Shown one piece after another: positions 29,186 through 48,371 of a DNA stretch of 64,000 nucleotides. Position 1 is the stretch's first letter; the number at the start of each line of letters is the position of its first letter. The position numbers were made by a program, and so were the translations under genes. The notes under the pieces were generated by a model that was not told the DNA's origin, did not search any database, and saw nothing but the letters and a program-made list of their open reading frames with translations. Source of the stretch: an uncultured bacterium (GTDB lineage Bacteria > Patescibacteriota > Minisyncoccia > Phycocordibacterales > GWA1-40-21); the NCBI GenBank assembly GCA_963840885.1, contig CAWJAN010000001.1, positions 9,669 through 73,668 of the forward strand. Reading direction: 5' to 3'.

Positions 29186-29722
29186 TTATTTTTTCTTTAT
29201 AACCCTTTTCTTATATTCGGAAAACATCATGATTGTTTTTGTGTCCTTAATTCTATCCATATAGCCAAGGCCGTTTAAATGATCTATCTCATGCTGGAAA
29301 ATTATTGCCCAAAAGCCGGATGCTTTTTCAACAACTTTCTTCCCGTTTTCATTATAATATTCAACGGTAATATCTTTTGCTCTAGGTACCATAGCCCTTA
29401 TCCCTCTTAAACTTAGGCATCCTTCCCAGCCATTAATTTTATTTTTTGAGTATTTCAGGATTTTTGGATTCACAACCACAATCGGACCTTTACGCTTTAA
29501 TTTCGGTCTGTTCACCGACGGGCGCATTTCCATTACAGCAAGGCTTAATGGCTGGCCAATCTGCGGAGCGGCCAAGCCGACGCCGTTATCGCGCCTCATC
29601 GTATAGAGCATATTTTTAATAAGCTTTTTGCCTTTAGCGGATTTAAGAAATTTTAGCGGAACTTTTTTAGCTTTGGAACGCAAAATCGGATTGCCGAATA
29701 GTGTACGAGGTAAAATTTTCAT
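29186..29722 (-). CDS. def: peptide deformylase (copy 1)
   Basis: Motifs GVGLAAPQIG, EGCLS, HEIDHLNG. Confidence 0.85.
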   Translation of the reverse strand: MKILPRTLFGNPILRSKAKKVPLKFLKSAKGKKLIKNMLYTMRRDNGVGLAAPQIGQPLSLAVMEMRPSVNRPKLKRKGPIVVVNPKILKYSKNKINGWEGCLSLRGIRAMVPRAKDITVEYYNENGKKVVEKASGFWAIIFQHEIDHLNGLGYMDRIKDTKTIMMFSEYKKRVIKKK

Positions 29723-29804
29723 GAGCTGATTATATCAGATTAAAATGTCAAAGAAAAAGCCCCGCGTGCTACGCCGCGGGGCTTGTATTTTTTAATGACT
29801 CTTA

Positions 29805-30209
29805 CTATAGAGTCAAAAGAATTGCTGAAGCGATAGCGCAAACGAAGCCGATTCCCTGTTTGAGAGTTAGGCCGTCAATATACGCTTTATACACGGCAGA
29901 GATGGCGATCTCCAAGACAAATGTGATAACAATCAAAAGTCCCACATTTGCCGCTGTCGATTTTGCAAGCATTCCATTAAAAAGCAGTGTTCCAACCCCT
30001 CCGAGAATGCTCGCAATCACCACGAACCACCAGTTCACGCCGGCTGTGTTTCCGATATTACCAATGGTAAATGGATACACAACCACAAGCATAATGCCGA
30101 TGAAGAAAAGCGACGACGCATTGCCGCCAAGGCCGCTTTTGTTCATGATAAGCGGCCAAATACCCCAACAGATGCCAGTCAAAACGGATTTCACTATCAG
30201 TTCTTGCAT
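29805..30209 (-). CDS. small EamA/DMT-like 4-TM membrane protein
   Basis: 134 aa, four TM helices. Confidence 0.45.
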   Translation of the reverse strand: MQELIVKSVLTGICWGIWPLIMNKSGLGGNASSLFFIGIMLVVVYPFTIGNIGNTAGVNWWFVVIASILGGVGTLLFNGMLAKSTAANVGLLIVITFVLEIAISAVYKAYIDGLTLKQGIGFVCAIASAILLTL

Positions 30210-30413
30210 GGACGCCTCGTTTCTAGCTAGGAATGACCAACCTGGAATTTAGATTACAATGAATAAGAGGAATGTCAATTTGATTTTTTATTTCTTTTAA
30301 AACAGATGCGATTTTTTCAGATATTTGCATATTATGTTTCATTCTACAGATATTTTTATATCTTTGTAAGATTAAATTTTTCGACGCGACTCGTGTGCTC
30401 GAACTACGCACGT

Positions 30414-30444
30414 GCTAGCTGGCAGTCTAGGACGATGTTGGAAC
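30414..30444. repeat. tRNA-Gln 3'-end-like repeat, copy R1
   Basis: GCTAGCTGGCAGTCTAGGACGATGTTGGAAC; immediately 3' of the minus-strand DUF305 gene. Confidence 0.6.
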
Positions 30445-30453
30445 AATCATCAC

Positions 30454-30900
30454 TCAATTTAAAGATTGAAGTTTGGTTTTCATCCAATCAATCTGTGATT
30501 GTTGGCTTGAAATTATATCTTTGCATAACTGTTGAATTTCAGTGTCTTGTAGGTTGGCTTTATTGCACATTAGTATCGCAGCACCATGATGAGATATCAT
30601 TGATTTTAGAAATTCTTTATCCGAGATACCAGTCTGGTTGCGTATGAAAATAAAAGACACAACAAGAAAAAAAATACTTATAATCATAGTAATAATTTTT
30701 GTTTTATTTTCGTACATTGATCCCATCACTGCTATTTCAATTAGTACCATAGCAGATGTCATGGCGAGTACCATGTAGACTTGATCCAGGTTTATGTAGA
30801 TATTACCAAAAGTATCAACCATCATGTACATAAGTACAAACATCACGCAGAATGAAAGTACAATCATTATGAAAAATTTAGATAATTTTATATGTTCCAT
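30454..30900 (-). CDS. DUF305-family membrane protein
   Basis: MISHHGAAILMC motif of DUF305 plus N-terminal TM helices. Confidence 0.55.
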   Translation of the reverse strand: MEHIKLSKFFIMIVLSFCVMFVLMYMMVDTFGNIYINLDQVYMVLAMTSAMVLIEIAVMGSMYENKTKIITMIISIFFLVVSFIFIRNQTGISDKEFLKSMISHHGAAILMCNKANLQDTEIQQLCKDIISSQQSQIDWMKTKLQSLN

Positions 30901-30933
30901 ACAACTAAATTATATCAGACTTAAAAAGTATTT

Positions 30934-30960
30934 GCTGGCCGTCTGGGACGATGTTGGAAC
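30934..30960. repeat. tRNA-Gln 3'-end-like repeat, copy R2
   Basis: GCTGGCCGTCTGGGACGATGTTGGAAC, 3' of the DUF2726 gene. Confidence 0.6.
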
Positions 30961-30964
30961 TAAA

Positions 30965-31468
30965 TTAAGACTTTAAATAAGGTAATATATTACTTACTGA
31001 TTCATAAAAATTATGACCAACCTTAATAGTTATTAACGGTAAGTCAGCTTCTTTAAATATCTGTTGTTTTTCTTTATCCATTGTTATTCTATCTAATCTG
31101 TTGTGAGAACTACCATTTAATTCAATTGCAACTATCGGTTTAAAATTTTGATCACAAATTACAAAATCTATATGTCTAGGTAATATTTTATTTCTTCTTT
31201 TATAGAAACCGGGACCATTAACAGCATCTATAACATCAGCTATACGCATATTAGGAAAAATATAATAATCTTGTGGTAGTTGTTTCCTTAATTCAAAAAA
31301 TAAAGCTGATTCAGTATGATTCATAATCTTGAATCTTTTCTTGTATCCGACGATAGATTTTTTGTCTATGACAGGAGCATGATGTCCTACAATTCTAATA
31401 TTTTCATAAAATTTTAGAATTAATATGACAACAAAAATTGCAATAATATACCAAATTAAGAAAATCAT
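30965..31468 (-). CDS. DUF2726-family protein (PD-(D/E)xK nuclease-like) with N-terminal TM
   Basis: IDFVICDQNFKPIVAIELNGSSH core typical of DUF2726. Confidence 0.55.
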   Translation of the reverse strand: MIFLIWYIIAIFVVILILKFYENIRIVGHHAPVIDKKSIVGYKKRFKIMNHTESALFFELRKQLPQDYYIFPNMRIADVIDAVNGPGFYKRRNKILPRHIDFVICDQNFKPIVAIELNGSSHNRLDRITMDKEKQQIFKEADLPLITIKVGHNFYESVSNILPYLKS

Positions 31469-31500
31469 ATTTAAAAGTATATCAAATTATAAATCTATTT

Positions 31501-31570
31501 GCTGGGGCTCGTGAGAGACGTTAGAACTGCGGTACTAGAATCCAATCACGATTACACTCTAAATATACCC
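31501..31570. repeat. tRNA-Gln 3'-end-like repeat, long form, copy R3
   Basis: GCTGGGGCTCGTGAGAGACGTTAGAACTGCGGTACTAGAATCCAATCACGATTACACTCTAAATATACC; near-identical to R4 and about 80% identical to R5 over the shared part. Confidence 0.7.
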
Positions 31571-31652
31571 GAGTTTTTTAAAAAAGAAAAATCGGACGAT
31601 ATAACCGATCTAAAATTCGTTGTATAAGGCTTTGCCACGATGAAAAAACTCG

Positions 31653-31982
31653 CTAGGAAACTTTGCTTTTAAGTTCTTTTATATAAGTTTTAAAAATCCA
31701 CTTTTCAAGGCGATTGTTTAAAAAATCATCATCAATACCATCAGCTGATATAGCTAATGCCCATTCTATTCCGAGTTTTTCATTCTTAAAAAATACAGCC
31801 TTACTCATCTTTTGGTCTTCTTTTTTAATTGGTTTACTATCTTTATCAAAAGTCATTTTAGATTCTTTTACATATACTTCCAAATCAGGGTCAATATCGT
31901 TAATAAGGGACTCGGCTTTCTCTTTTGTCTTCTCAAACCAATCTATTTCAGCAATATTTTCTTTTATGTTTAGTGTTTCCAT
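31653..31982 (-). CDS. hypothetical protein
   Basis: 109 aa acidic ORF, no recognised domain. Confidence 0.4.
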   Translation of the reverse strand: METLNIKENIAEIDWFEKTKEKAESLINDIDPDLEVYVKESKMTFDKDSKPIKKEDQKMSKAVFFKNEKLGIEWALAISADGIDDDFLNNRLEKWIFKTYIKELKSKVS

Positions 31983-32049
31983 ATTTTATATATTAACACA
32001 AATATATAATTTCTGACTTGACTTGAGCGTCGCAAGTGCTGGCTGGGGC

Positions 32050-32122
32050 TCGTGAGAGACGTTAGAACTGCGGTACTAAATTCCGATCAAGATTACACCC
32101 TAAATATACCTGAATTCCTAGG
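32050..32122. repeat. tRNA-Gln 3'-end-like repeat, long form, copy R4
   Basis: GCTGGCTGGGGCTCGTGAGAGACGTTAGAACTGCGGTACTAAATTCCGATCAAGATTACACCCTAAATATACC. Confidence 0.7.
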
Positions 32123-32257
32123 AGAGGAAAAGTCAGGTGATGACTATGTATCATCTCTTTTTCCGTTTTTACAACAAGGGTGAGAAATATGTTGTCCTAC
32201 AACTCGGTATTTTTTGTATGATTTAATAAACAGTGCCAAAAATGAAGTTTCCCATTT

Positions 32258-34120
32258 TTATTTAATTATGCTTTTAAAATATTTTTCGGTTTCCTTATCT
32301 ATAAAATAAACATAGCACCCTTTCATTCCGCGAGTCATAAGCGTGCGATAGGTATTTTTTATAATTTTATCCGATTTCTCAGAGGCAAACTTTGGATTAT
32401 TCTTAAAATCTGCTTTATATCCCTTTAATGAGGCATCTGTCTTAGCGCGTTTACTCGGATCAGTAATAACTTTTCCGTCTCTGACAACAAAATCCGGACC
32501 AACTATCACACCTATATAGTCAACCTCAAGACCCTGACAGGTATGTATGCAACCGACTTCATTTACTGATTTTGGTGAGATAATCCAAACGTTTCCATCT
32601 TCTGATAGGTTCCATTTCATTTCAAAGTCATATTCTGGAATGACAATATCTTTGAGTGATTTATTCTTCTTACTTATCCAGTTCCAACAGTAACCTGCGA
32701 CAAGGCGAGCCTTATTATTTATTTCGTTTTTATTGAAAATTAAATCTCTGAGTTCATTAGGTGAATCAACAATTTTAAAATCATAGTTAATACCTTCAAG
32801 TGTTTTGTTTGCCGTTTCTTTTATTTGTAATGAATTATCAAGCCATGAAAGATAACCATCTGATCCATTACATCTAAATTGCGATTCTAATTTTAAAAGA
32901 TGAGTTTTTGCGCCAATTTTTATTGCCCACTTTTCTATTTCTTCTTTTTTCCCTATATCGTGCCATGTGACTTTTTGATCTTCATCAATAAAAAATACCG
33001 AACATTTTGAAGCCTCTATTATTTCTTTAATCTGATTTTCTCCAAGATTTTTAAACATACCAGACTTTTCATTTAATCTATGAGCTTCATCAACAAGAAG
33101 ACAATCAAAAGTGTCCATATTACAGCTAATATAAGAGCCGGAACCGGTAAACATATTTGAAATTTGTGTTTTTTTAAGCGTTCCAGTTAGTTTACTCTCG
33201 AAAACTGCCCTCGGTGCAGCATTCTTTGTTACATATTGAGTATTCAAACCAAGCTTTGTTATTGCTACAAGCAAGTTAACGGCGACAACTGATTTACCTG
33301 TTCCTGGACCTCCATCAACCATGAGAACATTTTTATTATCACAAGTGGATTTTTTAGTTAGAGCTAAAGCAGTTTCATAAACAATTTTTTGGTCATCAAT
33401 CATGATAAATTCTTGATTGCCTTTTATCATTGATGCCATACTATCTGCAAGATTTTTTGATGGACGTATATCTCCATTATCAATTCTATATAATGTATTC
33501 TTTTTCTCTCCATGTTTAATAAACTTCGTAATAAAATCTTGAAGTTTTTTTTTGTCTCCTTTACAGAAAGCTGGAGCCTTTCCTAGGTAATCATTATAAA
33601 AGGAATCCAGAATTACAGCATTATCTAAGTAATTATGTAGGTAAGCACATGGTTCAAGTCCAATATTCTCTTCGTAGACAACAGCATTAAAACCATAAAG
33701 TAATGTTGAATATGACCATGCTTGATACGATGGATGTAATTCCTCGCTTGGACCACTTGCAAAGTGAGTAATAACCATTGCATCCTTATCTGTTTTTTGA
33801 ATATCAGTCCACTGTTTGAGTTCAATAATGACTACTTTTTCCTTACCATTTTCATCTTCCCCTGTAATAACAAAATCGATTCTGTTTTTGGTTCTAGGTA
33901 TTGAGTATTCGATAGCAACACCAGAATCATTCGGTATTTTGTCTGACTGCATCACTTTATACATTGCATCACCCAAAGAGTTCTTCCATGAGTTATATTC
34001 ACTACTTCCTACCTTAATATCAATATTGAGTTTTTCCTTTACTTTAGATTTTACGATGTCCTCAATCCCATTGGAAGCATCATTCAAAAATCCAAGCTTG
34101 GTGGATTGATAGACTATCAT
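32258..34120 (-). CDS. DUF2075-family protein: N-terminal PD-(D/E)xK nuclease-like domain fused to a Schlafen/SF1-like P-loop ATPase
   Basis: N-terminal IDFVITGEDENGKEKVVIIELKQW (D..ELK). Walker A VDGGPGTGKSVVAVNL. Walker B LLVDEAHRL. Start overlaps the MazG stop by 4 nt. Confidence 0.7.
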   Translation of the reverse strand: MIVYQSTKLGFLNDASNGIEDIVKSKVKEKLNIDIKVGSSEYNSWKNSLGDAMYKVMQSDKIPNDSGVAIEYSIPRTKNRIDFVITGEDENGKEKVVIIELKQWTDIQKTDKDAMVITHFASGPSEELHPSYQAWSYSTLLYGFNAVVYEENIGLEPCAYLHNYLDNAVILDSFYNDYLGKAPAFCKGDKKKLQDFITKFIKHGEKKNTLYRIDNGDIRPSKNLADSMASMIKGNQEFIMIDDQKIVYETALALTKKSTCDNKNVLMVDGGPGTGKSVVAVNLLVAITKLGLNTQYVTKNAAPRAVFESKLTGTLKKTQISNMFTGSGSYISCNMDTFDCLLVDEAHRLNEKSGMFKNLGENQIKEIIEASKCSVFFIDEDQKVTWHDIGKKEEIEKWAIKIGAKTHLLKLESQFRCNGSDGYLSWLDNSLQIKETANKTLEGINYDFKIVDSPNELRDLIFNKNEINNKARLVAGYCWNWISKKNKSLKDIVIPEYDFEMKWNLSEDGNVWIISPKSVNEVGCIHTCQGLEVDYIGVIVGPDFVVRDGKVITDPSKRAKTDASLKGYKADFKNNPKFASEKSDKIIKNTYRTLMTRGMKGCYVYFIDKETEKYFKSIIK

Positions 34121-34122
34121 TT

Positions 34123-34470
34123 TTACAATTGGTTATATTTTTTGTGATTACCTTTAGCTTTTTCAACTGAATATTTTTGTTCATTCTTTTCCATCTTATC
34201 ATCTAAAGATTTTACAAGATCAATATCTAAATCCTTACTCATGAGAAGTATCCAGTATAAAGTATCAGCTAATTCATCAGCGATATCAGTCTTATTGGTT
34301 TTTATATATTCTTCTATCTCCTTAGTATTTTTCCATTGGAAATGTTCCATCACCTCAGTAGCTTCAAGTACAAGTGAAATTGCTAAATCTTTAGGGTTAT
34401 GAAATTGTTTCCAATCTCGTGCATCTCTAAAATCTAATATTCTTTTTGAGAGTCTTTCAATATCTGACAT
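34123..34470 (-). CDS. MazG-like all-alpha nucleoside triphosphate pyrophosphohydrolase
   Basis: 115 aa with EExxE-type metal-binding motifs (LEATEVMEHF, ADELADTLYWIL). Confidence 0.6.
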   Translation of the reverse strand: MSDIERLSKRILDFRDARDWKQFHNPKDLAISLVLEATEVMEHFQWKNTKEIEEYIKTNKTDIADELADTLYWILLMSKDLDIDLVKSLDDKMEKNEQKYSVEKAKGNHKKYNQL

Positions 34471-34479
34471 TATTTTATT

Positions 34480-34950
34480 TTAAATTTTATTTTTTAATAT
34501 AAAGTTTTTTAACCATTCAGCATCTTCATTCATAATAAGTAATGAACCAGACGGTCTATTTTCTGAATTTCCATTATTTATTCGTATTTGGCCAGGAGAC
34601 GCCGTCCATATATTTATTCTACTCACTCCAAAAATCATAGCAATAATACCCTTTTTTATAATTATATTTTGGATACTACTAAAAGGAATGGATTTTGATT
34701 TTTTAATTAAAATCCCTGAATTTATTGTTAGTGTTTTTTCAGACACAATAAAATTAATACACGCATAATCTAAAAGTAACCAAATGGCAACCAAAATCAT
34801 AAATCTACCAAGAGAATTAAAAGTATCTGGCATATCGCTAACAAGACCACCAATAAATAAGGTAATTATAAAGAGTATTATAAAAAGCCAAGTTATTCCA
34901 TATAATCTTGCTGACCAAGGTAATTTTATTTTTTGATTAAGTGTAATCAT
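34480..34950 (-). CDS. membrane protein with bacterial PH domain (bPH_2, YdbS/YdbT-like)
   Basis: Two N-terminal TM helices then a PH-like region; ends 10 nt upstream of the MazG gene. Confidence 0.5.
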   Translation of the reverse strand: MITLNQKIKLPWSARLYGITWLFIILFIITLFIGGLVSDMPDTFNSLGRFMILVAIWLLLDYACINFIVSEKTLTINSGILIKKSKSIPFSSIQNIIIKKGIIAMIFGVSRINIWTASPGQIRINNGNSENRPSGSLLIMNEDAEWLKNFILKNKI

Positions 34951-35159
34951 TTGGTTTTTAATCAGATTAATTTTAATTATACTATAAAATAAATATTTAT
35001 CGTACTCAGGAACAATCTTAAAATGTTACTTAGTATGTTTTGGTCATTTGTTGTCTCTTGTGAGTCACTGCATATAAATTAAAATAGCTTTAAGAAGACC
35101 CATATAACACGAATGTCATAAAGCTATTAACGTAAACGGTATCTAGTCTGAAAATCCAA

Positions 35160-35210
35160 GGTTAGAACCGCAGTACTGGAATCTAACCATGATTACACTC
35201 TAGATATGCC
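35160..35210. repeat. tRNA-Gln 3'-end-like repeat, copy R5 (3' portion of the long form)
   Basis: GGTTAGAACCGCAGTACTGGAATCTAACCATGATTACACTCTAGATATGCC. Confidence 0.6.
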
Positions 35211-35252
35211 TAAGTTTATGAAAGAGATGCAATAATCTGATAGTGAAGAAAA

Positions 35253-35918
35253 TTATTTTTTTCTTGGGCTATAAAGTTTTTCTTCCGCAAGTTTAAGTGT
35301 TTCTTCACCTAATCTCTTGAGACTTTCAGGTAAGTTTTTCAAAACTTTATGAAGATCATCCAGATAATAATTTGGCATACCACTTTTTTTAACATACTCT
35401 CTTATTTCTGGAAGTGTTTCTTCAGCACCAAAACCTGCTTTTATATCCATTTCTAATTTTTCGATCATTCTTGAAATTTCTCCAACTTGTCCCTTATCTC
35501 TAAATTTTTCAATCTCGAAGTCTATAATTGTTCGTTTAATATCAAAAATTTCATTTTCAAATTTAGTCTGAATAGACTTAATTTGAATAGCAATAGAATC
35601 AGAACTTTTCTTTATTTGATTTTGAAAAGAATTTTTTGCATCAACCAATTCTTTTTCAAGAATACCTAACTTAGAATTTTTTACTTCTTTTCTTATTCTA
35701 AAAATAATTACTGTAATGATAATGAGACAAATTAATATAAACAATTCAAAAGGATACTTACAAACTAAAATGAATAATCTAGATAACTTATCAAACAAGT
35801 ATGAATATATTTGCCACTTTAATAAATAGTCAATTAAAGTCATCAAAGCAACCAGTGAAGTTATTATTGTAATAATCTTTCCTATTAGGGTTTTTGTCCA
35901 AAAATATATTTTTTGCAT
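35253..35918 (-). CDS. hypothetical membrane-anchored coiled-coil protein
   Basis: N-terminal TM helices then a long coiled-coil segment. Confidence 0.4.
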   Translation of the reverse strand: MQKIYFWTKTLIGKIITIITSLVALMTLIDYLLKWQIYSYLFDKLSRLFILVCKYPFELFILICLIIITVIIFRIRKEVKNSKLGILEKELVDAKNSFQNQIKKSSDSIAIQIKSIQTKFENEIFDIKRTIIDFEIEKFRDKGQVGEISRMIEKLEMDIKAGFGAEETLPEIREYVKKSGMPNYYLDDLHKVLKNLPESLKRLGEETLKLAEEKLYSPRKK

Positions 35919-35968
35919 TTTTTAAAAATTAATAATAAATCAAAGCAAGCTGAACTACACTTCTGTTA

Positions 35969-36120
35969 GCTGGGACTTATAACGGACGTTAGAACTATGA
36001 TGCTTAAATCTGAACCTGAAAATCTTTCGTTAGAACCAACCGATAATGTAGGATTGAAGCCACAAAATAGTAATTTTGAAACTCTAAATCCTACTTTGCT
36101 GGCCGACTCGAGTTAGAACC
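35969..36120. repeat. cluster of three partial tRNA-Gln 3'-end-like repeats (R6a-c)
   Basis: GCTGGGACTTATAACGGACGTTAGAAC (35969-35995); CGTTAGAACC (36028-36037); GCTGGCCGACTCGAGTTAGAACC (36098-36120). R6c is 17/23 identical to the tRNA-Gln 3' end. Confidence 0.6.
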
Positions 36121-36405
36121 ACCACTGGTCAAGCACCCCAATGTCATTCTTAGCTTTTTAAGTGTATCAGAACGACGCGACTCGAGCGACTTAAAAAGTG
36201 ACAAAAGTGACAATTTTATCGCTTGTAATATTCACTACCTCTTGCGAGACTTTCAAACGTTTCTTACAACACCATAATAAAGTTAGAGAAACTAGATAGA
36301 CCTGCAAATCCAACCGTAGAAACACTCACGCTTCTTGCGAAGGCACTGGAAACCTCTATCCCAGCATTGCTCTCTCATGAGGGATAGCTGACTTTCCTGA
36401 TTATT

Positions 36406-37368
36406 TTACTTGCCCCGCAGTAGAGTTAGGAAGAACGTCAAGATACCTGAAGCGAAAAAGGCAAAAGCGAAATTGTATTGGATTATGGTAACAATCAGGG
36501 ACAGCAACCAAAGAGCTACAGACACAACGACGAATAGCCAAACCCACTGAAGAACGAAAGCACTGAATTTGATACCGAAAGAAACTTTATTCTTTACTTC
36601 CTTCTTCGTAGATGCGGGTTTTTTGTTTAGAAATACCTCAATATGTTCTAGGATTTCTTTACTTGATCTAAATTCACCATTAGAAATACCAACATACTCT
36701 TTTGATTTCTCATCAAACAATTTCTCTTGGATTTTGTTTACATGTTCTATGGCTTTTTTGCTTTCTTCATCTGACATAGCGTCTTGTTTTGATTTTGGAT
36801 ACCAAATTTCTCGTCCTGTTGCATATTCATCAGTAATTTTTAATCCGGTAGTATCTGATGCGAGGATTTTCTCAATTTTAAGTGTTGCAGTCTTTATTTT
36901 TTCTGCGAACTGTCTCAGATGACGGCGATAATCATCCGGAGAAATTATTTCAGGGTGTTTAGAAAGTATATACATAGATACAGGCAACCAGCCCTCGTGC
37001 CATTCAACTTCTTTTTTAAGACCATCGATAAACCCTTTGGTCATCGAGCTCATAGAAGCCACTTCATTTCTGTCAGTAAGAATATCGGTCTCCAAAACAA
37101 CACCATCTTTCACACAGTATCGTTCTGGTGGCTCATCTACTCGTTCAGTTAGTCGAGTTTCCACTTTCACTGGATCAGTTTTAATGCGATATTCAAATTT
37201 TTCGGTACGGTAGTAGACATCATCCTTCAAACGCATTCTTGATTGATAAGTTTTTGAATCCGGAAACACATCAATTGTAAAATCTGCGTATTCGTCGTCA
37301 AGTGAAAGTGTATTATCGCCGTCTTCTTCAAAGATTTCTATTTTCATATTAAAAATATAATACCACAA
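36406..37368 (-). CDS. hypothetical protein with C-terminal TM helices
   Basis: 320 aa; soluble N-terminal region, two C-terminal TM helices; immediately downstream of the HEPN-motif gene. Confidence 0.45.
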   Translation of the reverse strand: MWYYIFNMKIEIFEEDGDNTLSLDDEYADFTIDVFPDSKTYQSRMRLKDDVYYRTEKFEYRIKTDPVKVETRLTERVDEPPERYCVKDGVVLETDILTDRNEVASMSSMTKGFIDGLKKEVEWHEGWLPVSMYILSKHPEIISPDDYRRHLRQFAEKIKTATLKIEKILASDTTGLKITDEYATGREIWYPKSKQDAMSDEESKKAIEHVNKIQEKLFDEKSKEYVGISNGEFRSSKEILEHIEVFLNKKPASTKKEVKNKVSFGIKFSAFVLQWVWLFVVVSVALWLLSLIVTIIQYNFAFAFFASGILTFFLTLLRGK

Positions 37369-37374
37369 AACTAG

Positions 37375-38142
37375 TTAAATTTCTGCTCCGTAAGCTTGGT
37401 CACAAATACCAACAACAAAATTAAAAAACTTCTGTGATAATTCCAAGAGTTTAGTATTTATCGGAGAATTTTTATTACGTGGATCATCTTGTACCATAAT
37501 CGCATAATTTAAATCTATCACTACTTTATCATTGATGTTATTCGGAGCTTCTACAATTTTAACCACACCTTCATGTTCAATAACATTTCTGTAATCAAAA
37601 AGAAGTTTGTATATGGTATCGTTATTTGAATTTTCAATTATACTTTTAAGTTCGGTGTTTTTCTTTTCAAGATCTTTAAGCTTTTTACAAAGTTCCCCCC
37701 AATCTGGTCTTTTAATTCCAAGACTATATATTTCATTTATCTCATTTGCCAACCAATCAAGAGAACTCATAAGAGAGATTGTTAGAGTATAAAAATATTC
37801 GTGTATTCTAATAGTTTCAATTGTAAATATCTCACCGGTATTTCCAGTTGATGGATCTGGATATAATGTAGAAGTTGGAACTCCCGATAGACCTATTGTG
37901 GTTATTGGTAATGTATATTGTCCAGTTTTTCTTGCCACACTAAGTTGTTGCTCTTTTAAATTAGAAAGTGCATCTTGAGCAAAGAGTAAACGCATAGTTA
38001 AAACATTTATTCCATATTTTTTAAGTGGGTTGTTGCCTATATTTTCAAGTTTGTTCCACAAAAACTCTTGGTTATTAAAAAATGGTGCTAGATCTGCCAA
38101 ACCACGATTATCTCTATAAGTGTTGAAGAAATATCCTTTCAT
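37375..38142 (-). CDS. hypothetical protein with a HEPN-like Rx4H motif (Abi-like)
   Basis: 255 aa; C-terminal YRNVIEHEG fits the HEPN Rx4-6H signature; no other domain recognised. Confidence 0.4.
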   Translation of the reverse strand: MKGYFFNTYRDNRGLADLAPFFNNQEFLWNKLENIGNNPLKKYGINVLTMRLLFAQDALSNLKEQQLSVARKTGQYTLPITTIGLSGVPTSTLYPDPSTGNTGEIFTIETIRIHEYFYTLTISLMSSLDWLANEINEIYSLGIKRPDWGELCKKLKDLEKKNTELKSIIENSNNDTIYKLLFDYRNVIEHEGVVKIVEAPNNINDKVVIDLNYAIMVQDDPRNKNSPINTKLLELSQKFFNFVVGICDQAYGAEI

Positions 38143-38298
38143 ATTTAATGTCTAACATAAAAACCTCTTATTCACAATTAATCTGCCATTGGATAGCAGA
38201 AGTTCGAATCCCACCTCCTATTATTTTATGGTGTGGTGTAATATGTCAAATATTCAGACTTGAGGGTCTATTTTAATACTTGTATTTAAATACAACTT

Positions 38299-38321
38299 GC
38301 TGTGCGGCTCGAGTTAGAACC
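38299..38321. repeat. tRNA-Gln 3'-end-like repeat, copy R7
   Basis: GCTGTGCGGCTCGAGTTAGAACC; 20/23 identical to R6c. Confidence 0.6.
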
Positions 38322-38394
38322 TTGCTCGGACAAGCCCCACAAGGTGATTTTGAATGATTTGAGTATATGAAATCAACGTGACTAGAGGTACTAG

Positions 38395-38601
38395 TTAAGC
38401 CTTACGCCAATGATCTCGTTTACCAATCTTTGTTATTCGAACACGCTCAATAAGAAGTTCTTGTGGGTCGAGCTTTTGCGCTTTCTCGATCGCCTTTTCT
38501 TGTGTAGTAGCAGTTGCAATAGGTTTTTTTACCTTAGGCGCCTTTACTCCATAATTACCATTTGGTAATCGTTCTACAAATAATTTTTTAGGTTTGTTCA
38601 T
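38395..38601 (-). CDS. DUF2188-family small protein
   Basis: VERLPNGNYGVKAP..TTQEKAIEKAQKL..ERVRITKIGKRDHW matches the DUF2188 pattern. Confidence 0.5.
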   Translation of the reverse strand: MNKPKKLFVERLPNGNYGVKAPKVKKPIATATTQEKAIEKAQKLDPQELLIERVRITKIGKRDHWRKA

Positions 38602-38615
38602 CTTTTACATTCTAT

Positions 38616-38638
38616 CACAAAAGTGACAAAAGTGACAG
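38616..38638 (-). promoter_or_regulatory. direct repeat GTGACAAAAGTGACA in the 5' region of the DUF2188 gene (operator-like)
   Basis: CACAAAAGTGACAAAAGTGACAG lies 15-37 nt upstream of the start codon; a second copy is at 36194-36213. Confidence 0.35.
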
Positions 38639-38641
38639 TTT

Positions 38642-39784
38642 TTAATCCTCTATATTTATATCTGGAATGTACCCGTAATTATGTAGAGCATTTAGTATTA
38701 CTGAGTACAAAGCTTCTTGAGGTACTTGGAAAAGTGGAAATAGTGGTAGCGCTTGAAGTGTTTCTGCATTACCAGCGTCTTTATCAGTTTGATAATGAAA
38801 CGAGAAATTAGTAAAATATACTGCATTATATGTTGATGGGTTTTCTGGTGTATTTGGTTCTTGTTTTTTTGCCGTATTTAAAATATCTTTTATCCATGTT
38901 TTTTGCTTAAAATCCTCAAAGTCTTCTTGCGGTGCATTTACATCAATAAAAATTATAAAGGGCATTTTCCCGCACTCGGTTTTCTTTAAAGCTTGATTAA
39001 ACAGACGTTGAATATCTCCCTTACGATTTTTTAAATTATCTACTTTACCTGGAGTATGCAGAACTCCAGCTCGATGTCTACTTTTTGCCTCAACAGCTAT
39101 TTCAGTACCTGTTTCCGTATGAATTGCAATAAACTCAGAATGTTTTTCTGTATTATCATCTATCCATTTTATGGTGAATCCTAATCTTGCAATTATTGCG
39201 GCTACCATAATTTCATATCTTGCACCTTGATATTGACGTGGTATACGTAAACGTTTAATAAGCGAATCAGGGAGGTTTGAACAATTTCTTAGGGTCGCTA
39301 TATCAAATGCAAGTGTCAACATAGATTTAACCCAACCATTTGGCGGGTATGCAAATATCCCATCCTTTGATGGTTCAACTATTTTTATTAGTTCTTTTTT
39401 CCACTGATCAGCATGAGAAAAACATTTAAAGATATGGTGCCTGTCATCTTCTGATAATAATTTCTGTTTTGAAAACCAATCAGACCCAAGTGTATCCCTA
39501 AGGGCGATCTGGACAAAATCATGGAAAGTTTGATTCAGTTCTGGACTTGAATATAGTTGATTGCCCAAGGCCCAGATTTTTTTATCCTTAAATATTATGG
39601 GTGTTACATAATTCATATAGATACCTCTACTTTGTAATTCCTCCTTTTTCTCTTTAGTTTTTTTGAAAAAATCCAATGCTTCTTGGGGAATTTTGTCTTG
39701 ATCCATATGACATTTTTTATATTTTTTCCCACTATTACATGGGCAGTGATCATTTCTGCCTATCTTCATACTATTTATAAACAC
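38642..39784 (-). CDS. SEC-C metal-binding motif protein with a possible PD-(D/E)xK-like core
   Basis: N-terminal NDHCPCNSGKKYKKCH SEC-C motif; internal EFIAIHTETGTEIAVEAKSR segment. Confidence 0.55.
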   Translation of the reverse strand: MFINSMKIGRNDHCPCNSGKKYKKCHMDQDKIPQEALDFFKKTKEKKEELQSRGIYMNYVTPIIFKDKKIWALGNQLYSSPELNQTFHDFVQIALRDTLGSDWFSKQKLLSEDDRHHIFKCFSHADQWKKELIKIVEPSKDGIFAYPPNGWVKSMLTLAFDIATLRNCSNLPDSLIKRLRIPRQYQGARYEIMVAAIIARLGFTIKWIDDNTEKHSEFIAIHTETGTEIAVEAKSRHRAGVLHTPGKVDNLKNRKGDIQRLFNQALKKTECGKMPFIIFIDVNAPQEDFEDFKQKTWIKDILNTAKKQEPNTPENPSTYNAVYFTNFSFHYQTDKDAGNAETLQALPLFPLFQVPQEALYSVILNALHNYGYIPDINIED

Positions 39785-40124
39785 ATAGATTCATAATGAT
39801 AGGATTTACGACTAAATATATTTCCCAAATAAATAAACAAACAAAAACAAGAAACATTGTTGAGATCACCACCTCTTCTTTTTTCTCATTTTTCCCTTCA
39901 AGTTTCGATTGATATTTTTTTAGTTCTTTATATAAAATATTAAAAAAATTGAATATGATATAGAGTATACCAATAGTTACCAAACTCTTAAGTGCTGTGA
40001 TGCCAGAGATATCCTTAATTGGTAGTGCACAATATGTTTGTGATAGGAATATTACCAAAGATAAACCAGCGGCAACCTCGAATAAAGATTTCATAACCGA
40101 AAATATCAGGAGCATTACTAGCAT
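39771..40124 (-). CDS. small hypothetical membrane protein
   Basis: 117 aa, three TM helices; overlaps the SEC-C gene start by 14 nt and the alternative ORF 40015..40281. Confidence 0.35.
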   Translation of the reverse strand: MLVMLLIFSVMKSLFEVAAGLSLVIFLSQTYCALPIKDISGITALKSLVTIGILYIIFNFFNILYKELKKYQSKLEGKNEKKEEVVISTMFLVFVCLFIWEIYLVVNPIIMNLCVYK

Positions 40125-40319
40125 TATGTTTGATCCCCATTTGGGTTTCTAACCAGTGACCATCTTTACCATCATGGCTCTGGTTTGAGCCTGAAGTATC
40201 CGAGCTTTTACCTCTGACATTTTTATTAAAGAGATCAACAATTTTCTTGATGATCTGCTGACGACTAAGATTTACTGACATGAATAAATACTAGCAAAAA
40301 TAAGAGAATATTGCGACCC

Positions 40320-40823
40320 CTACTTTATATTATCAAGAACAATTTTAGCTTCTGCCAATAGTGATTTTGTAACACTTAAATTCCAAGCTCTCATCGTGGA
40401 GTGCCATCTTTTGAATTTAAGAAATTGTTCCCAAGTTAATTCAATAATTCTTTTAGGTTTATAGTCTTTAAAGATTTGAACAATAATGACATATTCAAAC
40501 TTTTTGTCTGGAATAATATAATCGTCTTTTTCGCCAACACCGTAAAAAACGCCAGTGGTACTACTCGGTTCAGAAATTGTCTTAATACTGTATCTTTCTC
40601 CTTTTCTACTTAAAGCATCTACATTCTGAGTACCTTCGGGAGCAGCTTGAAGATTAGGCATTCCACTTATTGAATTATAAGTTTCAACAGCCAAAAATTC
40701 CCCTCGTTCACCAACGATGTTATTTGTTCTAACTAGGTTACGTTTTTTTAATTCTTGCTGAATATCAGCATATCCTAGCCAAAGCTCTTCATTGTTTAAT
40801 TCATCAGTATTTACTTTTTTCAT
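40320..40823 (-). CDS. hypothetical protein (possible nuclease-like fold)
   Basis: 167 aa; GERGEFLAVETY segment; first gene next to tRNA-Gln; ORF 40015..40281 might be a frameshifted continuation. Confidence 0.4.
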   Translation of the reverse strand: MKKVNTDELNNEELWLGYADIQQELKKRNLVRTNNIVGERGEFLAVETYNSISGMPNLQAAPEGTQNVDALSRKGERYSIKTISEPSSTTGVFYGVGEKDDYIIPDKKFEYVIIVQIFKDYKPKRIIELTWEQFLKFKRWHSTMRAWNLSVTKSLLAEAKIVLDNIK

Positions 40824-40850
40824 AGCTATCTTTGAGCTAGCTCAAACTTG

Positions 40851-40921
40851 CTGGGGGACTTGGATTCGAACCAAGATAACAGCCTTCAAAGGGCCGTGTC
40901 CTACCATTAGACGATCCCCCA
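40851..40921 (-). tRNA. tRNA-Gln (anticodon UUG)
   Basis: Reverse complement folds as a cloverleaf: 7-bp acceptor UGGGGGA/UCCCCCA with U1:A72, T-arm CTTGG-TTCGAAT-CCAAG, anticodon loop CTTTGAA. Confidence 0.75.
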
Positions 40922-40929
40922 ATACTTTG

Positions 40930-40960
40930 GGTTTCGTGTCCTGCCATTAGCCTGCCCCCT
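40930..40960 (-). other. truncated tRNA 5'-half fragment (pseudo-tRNA) immediately upstream of tRNA-Gln
   Basis: Reverse complement GGGGGCAGGCTAATGGCAGGACACGAAACCC parallels the first ~31 nt of the intact tRNA. Confidence 0.5.
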
Positions 40961-41027
40961 AGTGCGGGCAAGCGGCCAGGGACATCACCCAATATAAAAA
41001 CAGCTTAAGAATACTTGAAAAACCTGG

Positions 41028-41417: not shown

Positions 41418-41545
41418 ATTGATTAAAAGTTAATTGTTAAGCTGATTGCTAACCTGATTATTATACCAGATTATACCAGCCAGGCGCCATCTTCTTAAGA
41501 TTTTATATTAAGTTTAGCAATCTTCCCTCACCATCTTTCCCATAG

Positions 41546-44844: not shown

Positions 44845-44867
44845 ACAAAAGATTATACCAGAAATTT

Positions 44868-47813: not shown

Positions 47814-48371
47814 ATGACGAACAAAAAGATAAAAGAATCCCCCGTGCCAATAGTCCAAAAGGACAATAAAGTTTTGAGGCAGGTTTCCGCTGAAATCCCG
47901 AAAGACAAGATAAAAAGCGCAGAAATCAAAAAAATAATTTCCGATATGGAGGCCGCCATGGATTCCCAGGTGGATGCTGTAGCCATAGCGGCCATACAGA
48001 TAGGCCGACCAGTCCGCCTTTTTATCATTTCAAAAAGGGCTTTCAATCTTACCGGCAAGGCAAAAGACAAAGATGATATGGTTTTTATAAACCCTAAAAT
48101 AATCAAGCAATCCAAAAAGAAGCAGCTTCTCGAAGAAGGATGCCTTTCCGTCCGATATGTTTATGGCGAAGTTCCGCGCGCTGAAAAAACAACAATAGAG
48201 GCGTTTGACGAAAGCGGCAAGAAATTCACCCGCGGCTTTTCCGGCCTCTTATCTCAGATAGTCCAGCACGAGACAGACCACCTAAACGGCGGGCTTTTCA
48301 CCGATAAAGCGAAGCACACCATTGAAATTTCCAGGGATGAATATGAAAAAAGCATTTCGGAAACAAAGTAG
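47814..48371 (+). CDS. def: peptide deformylase (copy 2)
   Basis: Motifs IGRPVRLFII (G-x-G-hAAxQ region), EEGCLSV, HETDHLNG. Confidence 0.8.
   Translation: MTNKKIKESPVPIVQKDNKVLRQVSAEIPKDKIKSAEIKKIISDMEAAMDSQVDAVAIAAIQIGRPVRLFIISKRAFNLTGKAKDKDDMVFINPKIIKQSKKKQLLEEGCLSVRYVYGEVPRAEKTTIEAFDESGKKFTRGFSGLLSQIVQHETDHLNGGLFTDKAKHTIEISRDEYEKSISETK

Follow-up and report, generated by a model that had tools for sequence, protein, structure and literature searches.

The DNA under study is a 64,000-nucleotide (nt) stretch of contig CAWJAN010000001.1 (assembly GCA_963840885.1) from an uncultured bacterium of the Patescibacteriota, referred to below as the window. On its minus strand lies a block of three closely packed genes, encoding a membrane protein with a bPH_2 domain, a small MazG-like nucleoside triphosphate (NTP) pyrophosphohydrolase and a large nuclease-helicase of the DUF2075 family (Table 1). 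Comparison with related loci showed that the conserved unit is a widespread two-gene module, consisting of a DCTPP1-type enzyme and a nuclease/SF1B helicase. The bPH gene is a local addition that lies outside the conserved module and is joined to the pair in this lineage only. The reading that best fits the observations, held with modest confidence, is that the block is the operon of a mobile two-gene, DNA-targeting immunity module similar to Nhi, plus one passenger gene. This and all other functional readings given here rest on homology and gene context.

A scan of one genome per species yielded 80 loci with full-length relatives of the large protein at 51-87% identity. They span Patescibacteria, Omnitrophota, Alpha- and Gammaproteobacteria, Bacteroidota, Bacillota and others; identity is 76-87% within Patescibacteria and 51-69% across phyla. 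The partner was counted in the 71 loci whose gene is full-length and is preceded by 400 nt or more of sequence. A MazG-like gene lies immediately upstream on the same strand in 55 of the 71 and elsewhere in the locus in 4, and the remaining 12 loci, mostly from Bacillaceae, have none within 8 kilobases (kb). Approached from the MazG side (seven places, on longer contigs), the close relatives of the MazG-like gene are directly followed by a DUF2075 gene in 4 of 4 cases. Conservation does not extend to the flanking genes: 120 Pfam families turn up among 122 immediate neighbours, and a search for a conserved third gene on either side found none. The pair is patchily distributed and near-identical proteins are present in unrelated phyla, which points to horizontal transfer. 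Literature searches for DUF2075 together with MazG, and for MazG-like proteins with anti-phage helicases, returned no description of the pair, and within the searchable library the two names do not appear in the same paper. On a Hymenobacter canadensis plasmid (locus L136, 4001-7987), two different DUF2075 genes adjoin each other next to a DNA methyltransferase gene and a DUF4747 gene, with no MazG-like gene present.

The three minus-strand open reading frames reported in an initial annotation of the window matched the open reading frame check exactly. The motifs it listed (IDFVITGEDENGKEKVVIIELK, GPGTGKS and LLVDEAHRL) are all present in the sequence, and Pfam confirms bPH_2, MazG-like and DUF2075 domains in the three proteins. 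The spacings had to be corrected. Direct reading of the strand gave a 9-nt spacer (aataaaata) from the bPH stop to the MazG start, where 10 nt had been given. The supposed 4-nt ATGA overlap between the MazG-like gene and the large gene is actually a 2-nt gap here, the TAA stop being followed by aa and then by the ATG of the 620-residue gene. A 4-nt overlap of these two genes does occur in 16 orthologous loci and is the commonest arrangement there. No terminator-like site was found in 31900-35400, including the inside of the block. A perfect TATAAT hexamer precedes the bPH gene, and no comparable motif is present ahead of the MazG or DUF2075 starts; the hexamer would be the sole plausible promoter element seen for the block. 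Thus the short spacers, the lack of an internal terminator and the TATAAT before the first gene suggest that the three genes form one transcription unit. A promoter consensus scan of the block region scored no better than shuffled sequence, and both this and the terminator scan are uninformative in such AT-rich DNA. No Shine-Dalgarno sequence is visible before any of the three genes. The same gene order was found on an independent 8.8-kb Logan contig from the same or a near-identical strain.

An extended -10 type motif, TGnTATAAT or TCTGATATAAT, is over-represented in the low-GC part of the window, with 40 matches against 19 expected when up to 2 mismatches are allowed. Examples are at 29729-29739, 30909-30919, 41460-41470 and 44852-44862. 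The motif stands directly upstream of many genes, about 10 nt before the start codon in the upstream regions read, a position that suggests short-leader or leaderless transcripts.

The bPH protein consists of two N-terminal hydrophobic helices followed by a YdbS/YdbT-like bPH_2 domain (PF03703, E 1.2e-11, 45.2 bits against a cutoff of 22, residues 63-122, positions 34585..34764). Thirty-one homologues were found, and those with names are from Patescibacteria. The initial annotation had proposed the three genes as one candidate system, in which bPH would be a sensor or effector acting with the MazG-like enzyme and the nuclease-helicase. This model is largely refuted by the co-occurrence test. 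Searches with phmmer and a family hidden Markov model (HMM) found no bPH gene in any of the 80 pair loci, nor does one precede MazG at any of the 7 places reached from that side. Conversely, none of 53 bPH loci contains a DUF2075 gene, and a MazG-like gene is near bPH in only one of them (L081). Elsewhere, bPH genes are usually set off by gaps of 40-300 nt, have variable neighbours and look monocistronic, and the window's bPH protein has no PADLOC match. A functional trio would draw on the 9-nt, terminator-free junction between bPH and MazG, on the position of the lone plausible promoter upstream of bPH, on the presence of the same trio in the independent assembly of the same or a near-identical strain, and on L081, where a MazG-like gene from the window's MazG subfamily, a methylase-type gene and bPH follow one another. 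Set against the counts, these leave a three-component system very improbable, and the block as a real three-gene system is largely refuted. Since in the related loci bPH never co-occurs with DUF2075 and MazG does, the conserved unit is the MazG/nuclease-helicase pair; the bPH gene is probably an unrelated passenger that merely shares the promoter of the pair.

Locus L081 (1465-5465 of a related metagenome scaffold) carries, in this order, a NYN gene, a MazG-like gene, the gene of a 1037-residue N6_Mtase/Eco57I/Type_ISP_C restriction-modification enzyme and bPH. Its bPH protein is 65% identical to that of the window, the bPH gene starting 8 nt after the gene of the 1037-residue enzyme, and its MazG-like gene belongs to the same subfamily as the window MazG (E 1e-45 to the family HMM). 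The arrangement indicates that this MazG subfamily is able to partner another DNA-targeting enzyme.

The large protein is a PD-(D/E)xK nuclease fused to an SF1B-type DUF2075 helicase in one polypeptide. The helicase part matches PF09848 (DUF2075, now named SLFN-g3_helicase) with an E-value of 3e-105 (352.7 bits against a cutoff of 24), and the alignment covers model positions 1-354 of 354 and residues 263-608 of the protein. In Foldseek searches the modelled helicase half, which is of moderate confidence only, resembles RecD (2.2e-6) and RecD2 (7.4e-6). Sequence searches of the N-terminal domain against Pfam and the PDB gave nothing useful. The structure model predicts a PD-(D/E)xK restriction-endonuclease fold for the N-terminal 250 residues, and the best matches of the nuclease domain are restriction enzymes and Can2/Card1-type nucleases. 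All 77 relatives compared share the helicase residues G270, G273, G275, K276, S277, D344, E345, H347 and R348, which include the Walker A and DEAH motifs, and E71, D82 and E100-x-K102 of the nuclease domain are invariant among relatives. As stated in the initial annotation, the DUF2075 protein combines a PD-(D/E)xK nuclease with an SF1-like ATPase, a description upheld by the fold model, the E...D...ExK residues, the Walker A and DEAH motifs and the RecD-like fold.

Homologues of the large protein number more than 8000. The best 120 are 76-87% identical and come from Patescibacteria where a source is named. The nuclease domain alone falls into 1545 clusters at 50% identity and is always N-terminal, in proteins of about 620-800 residues. 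Of the 77 relatives, 26, including most of the closest ones, have an additional Peptidase_S24 domain at the C-terminus, and in these long forms it carries the GDSM serine, the lysine and a UmuD-like Cys-Gly site. The window protein has no PF00717 match and stops at residue 620, where the long forms go on; it is therefore a short form.

The MazG-like protein is, as judged from its sequence, an all-alpha NTP pyrophosphohydrolase of the DCTPP1/RS21-C6 type. It matches PF12643 with an E-value of 2.2e-16 (60.3 bits against a cutoff of 27), and over its whole 115 residues it matches the pyrophosphatase 4qgp (3e-19) and mouse RS21-C6 and human DCTPP1 (6e-16) in the PDB. Of 64 orthologues, 63-64 retain the metal ligands E36, E39, E66 and D69, and 62-64 retain W20, H24 and W46 together with these ligands. 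The ExxE...ExxD ligands, the FQW(K) motif and the W20/H24 positions are likewise retained in DCTPP1/RS21-C6 and archaeal 4qgp. The known enzymes are stand-alone house-cleaning enzymes, whereas the window gene shares an operon with a nuclease-helicase. DCTPP1 prefers 5-modified deoxycytidine triphosphate (dCTP), and dCTP or a modified dCTP may be the substrate of the window enzyme.

The closest characterised architecture is that of Nhi (SERP2475 of Staphylococcus epidermidis; Bari et al.) and of the 'Nhi-like' proteins (Millman et al. 2022), in which a nuclease and DUF2075 form a single protein and anti-phage activity was shown experimentally. Nhi blocks the accumulation of phage DNA and has been proposed to sense and degrade phage replication intermediates. 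Nhi and the window protein both have an N-terminal PD-(D/E)xK nuclease and a C-terminal SF1B/DUF2075 helicase in one polypeptide. Their likeness in sequence, however, is confined to the Walker A-Walker B stretch: the PADLOC model for Nhi (PDLC02372) matches residues 255-419 only (profile positions 198-332 of 470, E 1.6e-11), and the nuclease domain has no match. Nhi is also a single gene, unlike the window family, which is usually preceded by a MazG-like gene (55/71) and often bears S24. The MazG partner and the S24 fusion are features not found in Nhi; otherwise the architecture is that of Nhi.

Other systems are more distant. PDC-S41, a PADLOC candidate, and AbiO have the DUF2075 helicase domain in common with the window protein, and PDC-S41 genes adjoin the window family in 4 of 122 flanking positions. 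The window protein scores 52 bits over residues 382-605, against an E-value of 2e-289 for true PDC-S41 members in the neighbouring genes, and on this evidence it belongs to a family different from PDC-S41 and AbiO. Group III Schlafens (SLFN11, SLFN5, SLFN13) have no detectable sequence similarity to it outside the helicase, and the N-terminal domain of the window protein differs from theirs in its D...ExK restriction-endonuclease signature. Hachiman (HamAB) and type ISP enzymes (LlaBIII) differ in helicase superfamily and organisation, and the window protein has no methyltransferase or specificity domain.

If the pair is an immunity module of the Nhi kind, the following mechanism may be envisaged. 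The MazG-like gene would be translationally close-coupled to the nuclease-helicase gene. The helicase would load on and move along foreign or aberrant DNA (replication intermediates, single-stranded DNA or free ends), and the fused nuclease would degrade the DNA so engaged, a role suggested for the large protein by analogy with Nhi. The near-constant DCTPP1-like partner suggests that dCTP or a non-canonical, for example 5-modified, dCTP would be hydrolysed. This could starve phages that use modified cytosine, or bar modified nucleotides released by degradation from the host pool. In the long forms, the S24 domain with its Cys-Gly site and Ser/Lys dyad would permit switching by RecA*-stimulated self-cleavage, a reaction established for LexA and UmuD. 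The short form of the window, having no S24 domain, would be unregulated at that level. The modified-dCTP idea fits with two observations: DUF2075 NTPases adjoin modification-dependent restriction enzymes, and a MazG-like gene stands before the methylase-type enzyme of L081. MazG NTP pyrophosphohydrolase domains have themselves been listed as defence domains by prediction, without validation. The invariance across phyla of the catalytic residues for all three enzymatic activities also supports the immunity reading, and defence-type genes are found next to the pair (ResIII 5, C5 methylase 3, DUF3427 type IV 2, PDC-S41 4, Fic 2, DndB 1).

Several points weigh against immunity. Recognisable defence genes make up about a tenth of the immediate neighbours, a qualitative signal. 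In the PADLOC check proposed in the initial annotation, the models matched the helicase of the large protein only partially and weakly (PDC-S41 7e-15, Nhi 1.6e-11, AbiO 4e-10), and there was no match to the MazG-like or the bPH protein. The substrate of the MazG-like enzyme is argued only from homology to DCTPP1, and the defence role by analogy. The 12 of 71 loci that lack a MazG-like gene indicate that the nuclease-helicase can function alone. The conservation (76-87% in Patescibacteria, 51-69% across phyla) is unusually high for an immunity gene, so that a housekeeping or repair enzyme fits as well. Finally, the S24 fusion connects the family with the response to DNA damage just as easily as with the sensing of phage.

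The last two points lead to the main rival reading, that the pair is a module for the DNA-damage response or for sanitation of the nucleotide pool, and not for immunity. In its detailed form the nuclease-helicase would act on replication intermediates that are damaged or stalled, the DCTPP1-like enzyme would clear non-canonical deoxynucleoside triphosphates (dNTPs), and the S24-bearing forms would be under SOS control via RecA*. Such a role would account for the very high cross-phylum conservation with invariant catalytic residues, for the 26 of 77 relatives that bear a LexA/UmuD-type S24 domain with its GDSM, Lys and Cys-Gly features, and for the retention of the family in small Patescibacteria genomes. 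Eukaryotic DCTPP1 is a house-cleaning enzyme, and a gene for an IMS/Y-family polymerase lies a few genes downstream of the pair in three loci (L138, L140 and L141). Against this stand the almost wholly variable neighbours, with no conserved synteny with repair genes, and the location of the pair on plasmids and in a cassette array. The patchy distribution, with near-identical proteins in unrelated phyla, speaks for horizontal transfer, and the closest characterised architecture, Nhi, is that of an immunity enzyme. On balance a repair or sanitation module is possible and, in its general as in its detailed form, rather unlikely.

The carriers of the pair bear on a further alternative. Relatives reside on plasmids of Marivirga, Hymenobacter and Halomonas, and of the archaea Methanosphaera and Halalkalicoccus. 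The pair is also found on the 22-kb PP438423.1 (loci L134 and L137), which is filed as the complete genome of 'Microcystis phage Mwe-JY31'. This element encodes a Rep3 initiator and ParA-like, TraG/TrwB-like, resolvase, DUF932 and SMC/AAA_21 proteins, and, of the 16 other genes annotated on it, the 10 largest gave no Pfam match to phage structural proteins. It thus appears to be plasmid-like. A scan of IMG/VR viral contigs found no close relatives. Together with the repeat-bounded cassette of the window and a relaxase-like gene near the pair in L142, these plasmids and the element filed as a phage would suit a selfish function that serves the carrier, such as competition between plasmids or cassettes, the blocking of DNA that enters the cell, or addiction. 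The majority of the 80 loci, however, are chromosomal contigs with no obvious mobility genes beside the pair, and no toxin/antitoxin-type partner is recognisable. The proposal also overlaps heavily with defence, because degradation of foreign DNA serves both. A function of this selfish kind is improbable.

The immunity reading thus remains the preferred one. In a bolder version, the pair would constitute an unrecognised and very widespread antiviral system of bacteria and archaea. The DCTPP1-type enzyme would destroy the modified dCTP needed by cytosine-modifying phages, or another non-canonical dNTP, and the Nhi-like enzyme would degrade the stalled or unmodified phage DNA that results. In the long forms, self-cleavage of S24, triggered by RecA*, would arm the system. 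This version is tentative and, taken as a whole, doubtful. If it is true, the SOS signal would turn on a bacterial immune effector directly.

In the window, the three-gene block forms a single cassette in a variable array that adjoins tRNA-Gln. The array (29.8-40.8 kb; 29800-41000) consists of about ten small, unrelated, co-oriented genes, located directly 3' of tRNA-Gln and separated by repeats. Its genes include DUF2726, SEC-C, DUF6998, EamA-like and DUF305, plus a weak HEPN match below the Pfam cutoff. The repeat core GTTC[TC]AAC..CAGC occurs eight times on the minus strand and not once on the plus strand between 30.4 and 40.9 kb, one copy being inside tRNA-Gln; on the minus strand the core, GTTC[TC]AAC-N-CCAGC(A), resembles tRNA-Gln from the T-loop to the 3' end. 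The placement of the block between two repeats, noted earlier, was confirmed, and the two belong to one family. As in integron cassettes and CALIN arrays, about ten small co-oriented unrelated genes are parted by a repeat family. Unlike integron cassettes, the array abuts a tRNA gene and its repeats mimic the 3' part of the tRNA. An integron was rejected: the layout of attC sites, R''(RYYYAAC)...R'(GTTRRRY), is missing from the repeats, and no IntI, tyrosine recombinase or Phage_integrase match was found in the 38 window open reading frames scanned. That the repeats are displaced true 3' ends of tRNA-Gln is also unlikely, as their acceptor parts (e.g. CCGCACA) would not pair with the 5' end of the tRNA. 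The array may represent an integron-like cassette system acting at a tRNA-like site. A search for the window's repeat motif in the 80 related loci found no copy there, which argues that the pair moves by other means elsewhere.

Table 1. Coordinates of the three-gene block, its domains and motifs, and the surrounding repeats and tRNA gene in the window.
Feature	Position	Strand	Remarks
bPH_2 membrane-protein gene	34480..34950	minus	156 residues; first gene of block
MazG-like gene	34123..34470	minus	115 residues; second gene
Nuclease-helicase (DUF2075) gene	32258..34120	minus	620 residues; third gene
TATAAT hexamer, perfect	34976..34981	minus	25 nt upstream of bPH start; read from the sequence
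Metal-binding motifs E36-x-x-E39 ... E66-x-x-D69	34264..34365	minus	in MazG-like gene
Nuclease domain	33416..34120	minus	about residues 1-235; catalytic candidates E71, D82, E100-L-K102
Helicase/ATPase domain	32297..33334	minus	PF09848 alignment
Walker A GGPGTGKS	33290..33313	minus	in helicase domain
DEAH	33080..33091	minus	in helicase domain
Upstream boundary repeat	35142..35241		family D1, 62% identical to reference copy; degenerate; hairpin GGTTAGA-N15-TCTAACC
Downstream boundary repeat	32037..32141		families D1 and D2; minus strand ...GTTCTAACGTCTCTCACGAGCCCCAGCCAGCA, like tRNA-Gln from T-loop to 3' end
Further repeats of the same family	31496-31600, 35964-36013		
tRNA-Gln(UUG)	40850..40921	minus	ARAGORN, Rfam RF00005; head of array

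Some other features of the region were recorded. A partial duplicate resembling the 5' part of tRNA-Gln is present at about 40925-41000. An element of 24 nt, AAAAGTGACAAAAGTGACA(A/G)TTTT, which contains a tandem GTGACA core, is found in near-identical form at 36194-36217 and 38619-38642, intergenic in the array, and may be an operator site. The window has two peptide deformylase genes, one at the distal edge of the array (29186-29722) and one at 47814-48371, upstream of a formyltransferase gene about 1.2 kb away. Four pair-bearing Patescibacteria loci have palindromic-repeat arrays of their own (L010:11700-13200, L011:11700-13700, L013:11540-11910 and L046:12900-14170), in which, downstream of the pair, repeats such as AACATTCTCAAGAATGTGAGAATGT and TTAACATCCTTACAAACTGGAGTTTGTTGGTATG are spaced 200-900 nt apart among small genes. 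Arrays of repeat-bounded cassettes may be a common feature of Patescibacteria genomes. G+C in the window stays near 70% as far as about 21.65 kb and has dropped to 40-45% by about 21.95 kb. The junction appears to unite two unrelated sequences, through concatenation of contigs, contamination during binning or a chimera. The low-GC part is of Patescibacteria type, judged from the named sources of the closest homologues.

In bacteria, proteins that combine a nuclease with DUF2075 are related to the human Schlafen helicases, and among them Nhi is a proven single-protein anti-phage enzyme. The present analysis identifies a large, strongly conserved branch of these proteins that nearly always occurs together with a dCTP-pyrophosphatase-like partner. 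Should the pair be an immunity system, it would join the editing of nucleotide pools, the degradation of DNA and the RecA damage signal within a single compact module, of which cultivable orthologues exist in Paenibacillus, Bacillus and Hymenobacter. If it serves repair, it would be an undescribed module kept even by the tiny genomes of Patescibacteria. Either way, the third gene of the block, bPH, lies outside the system.

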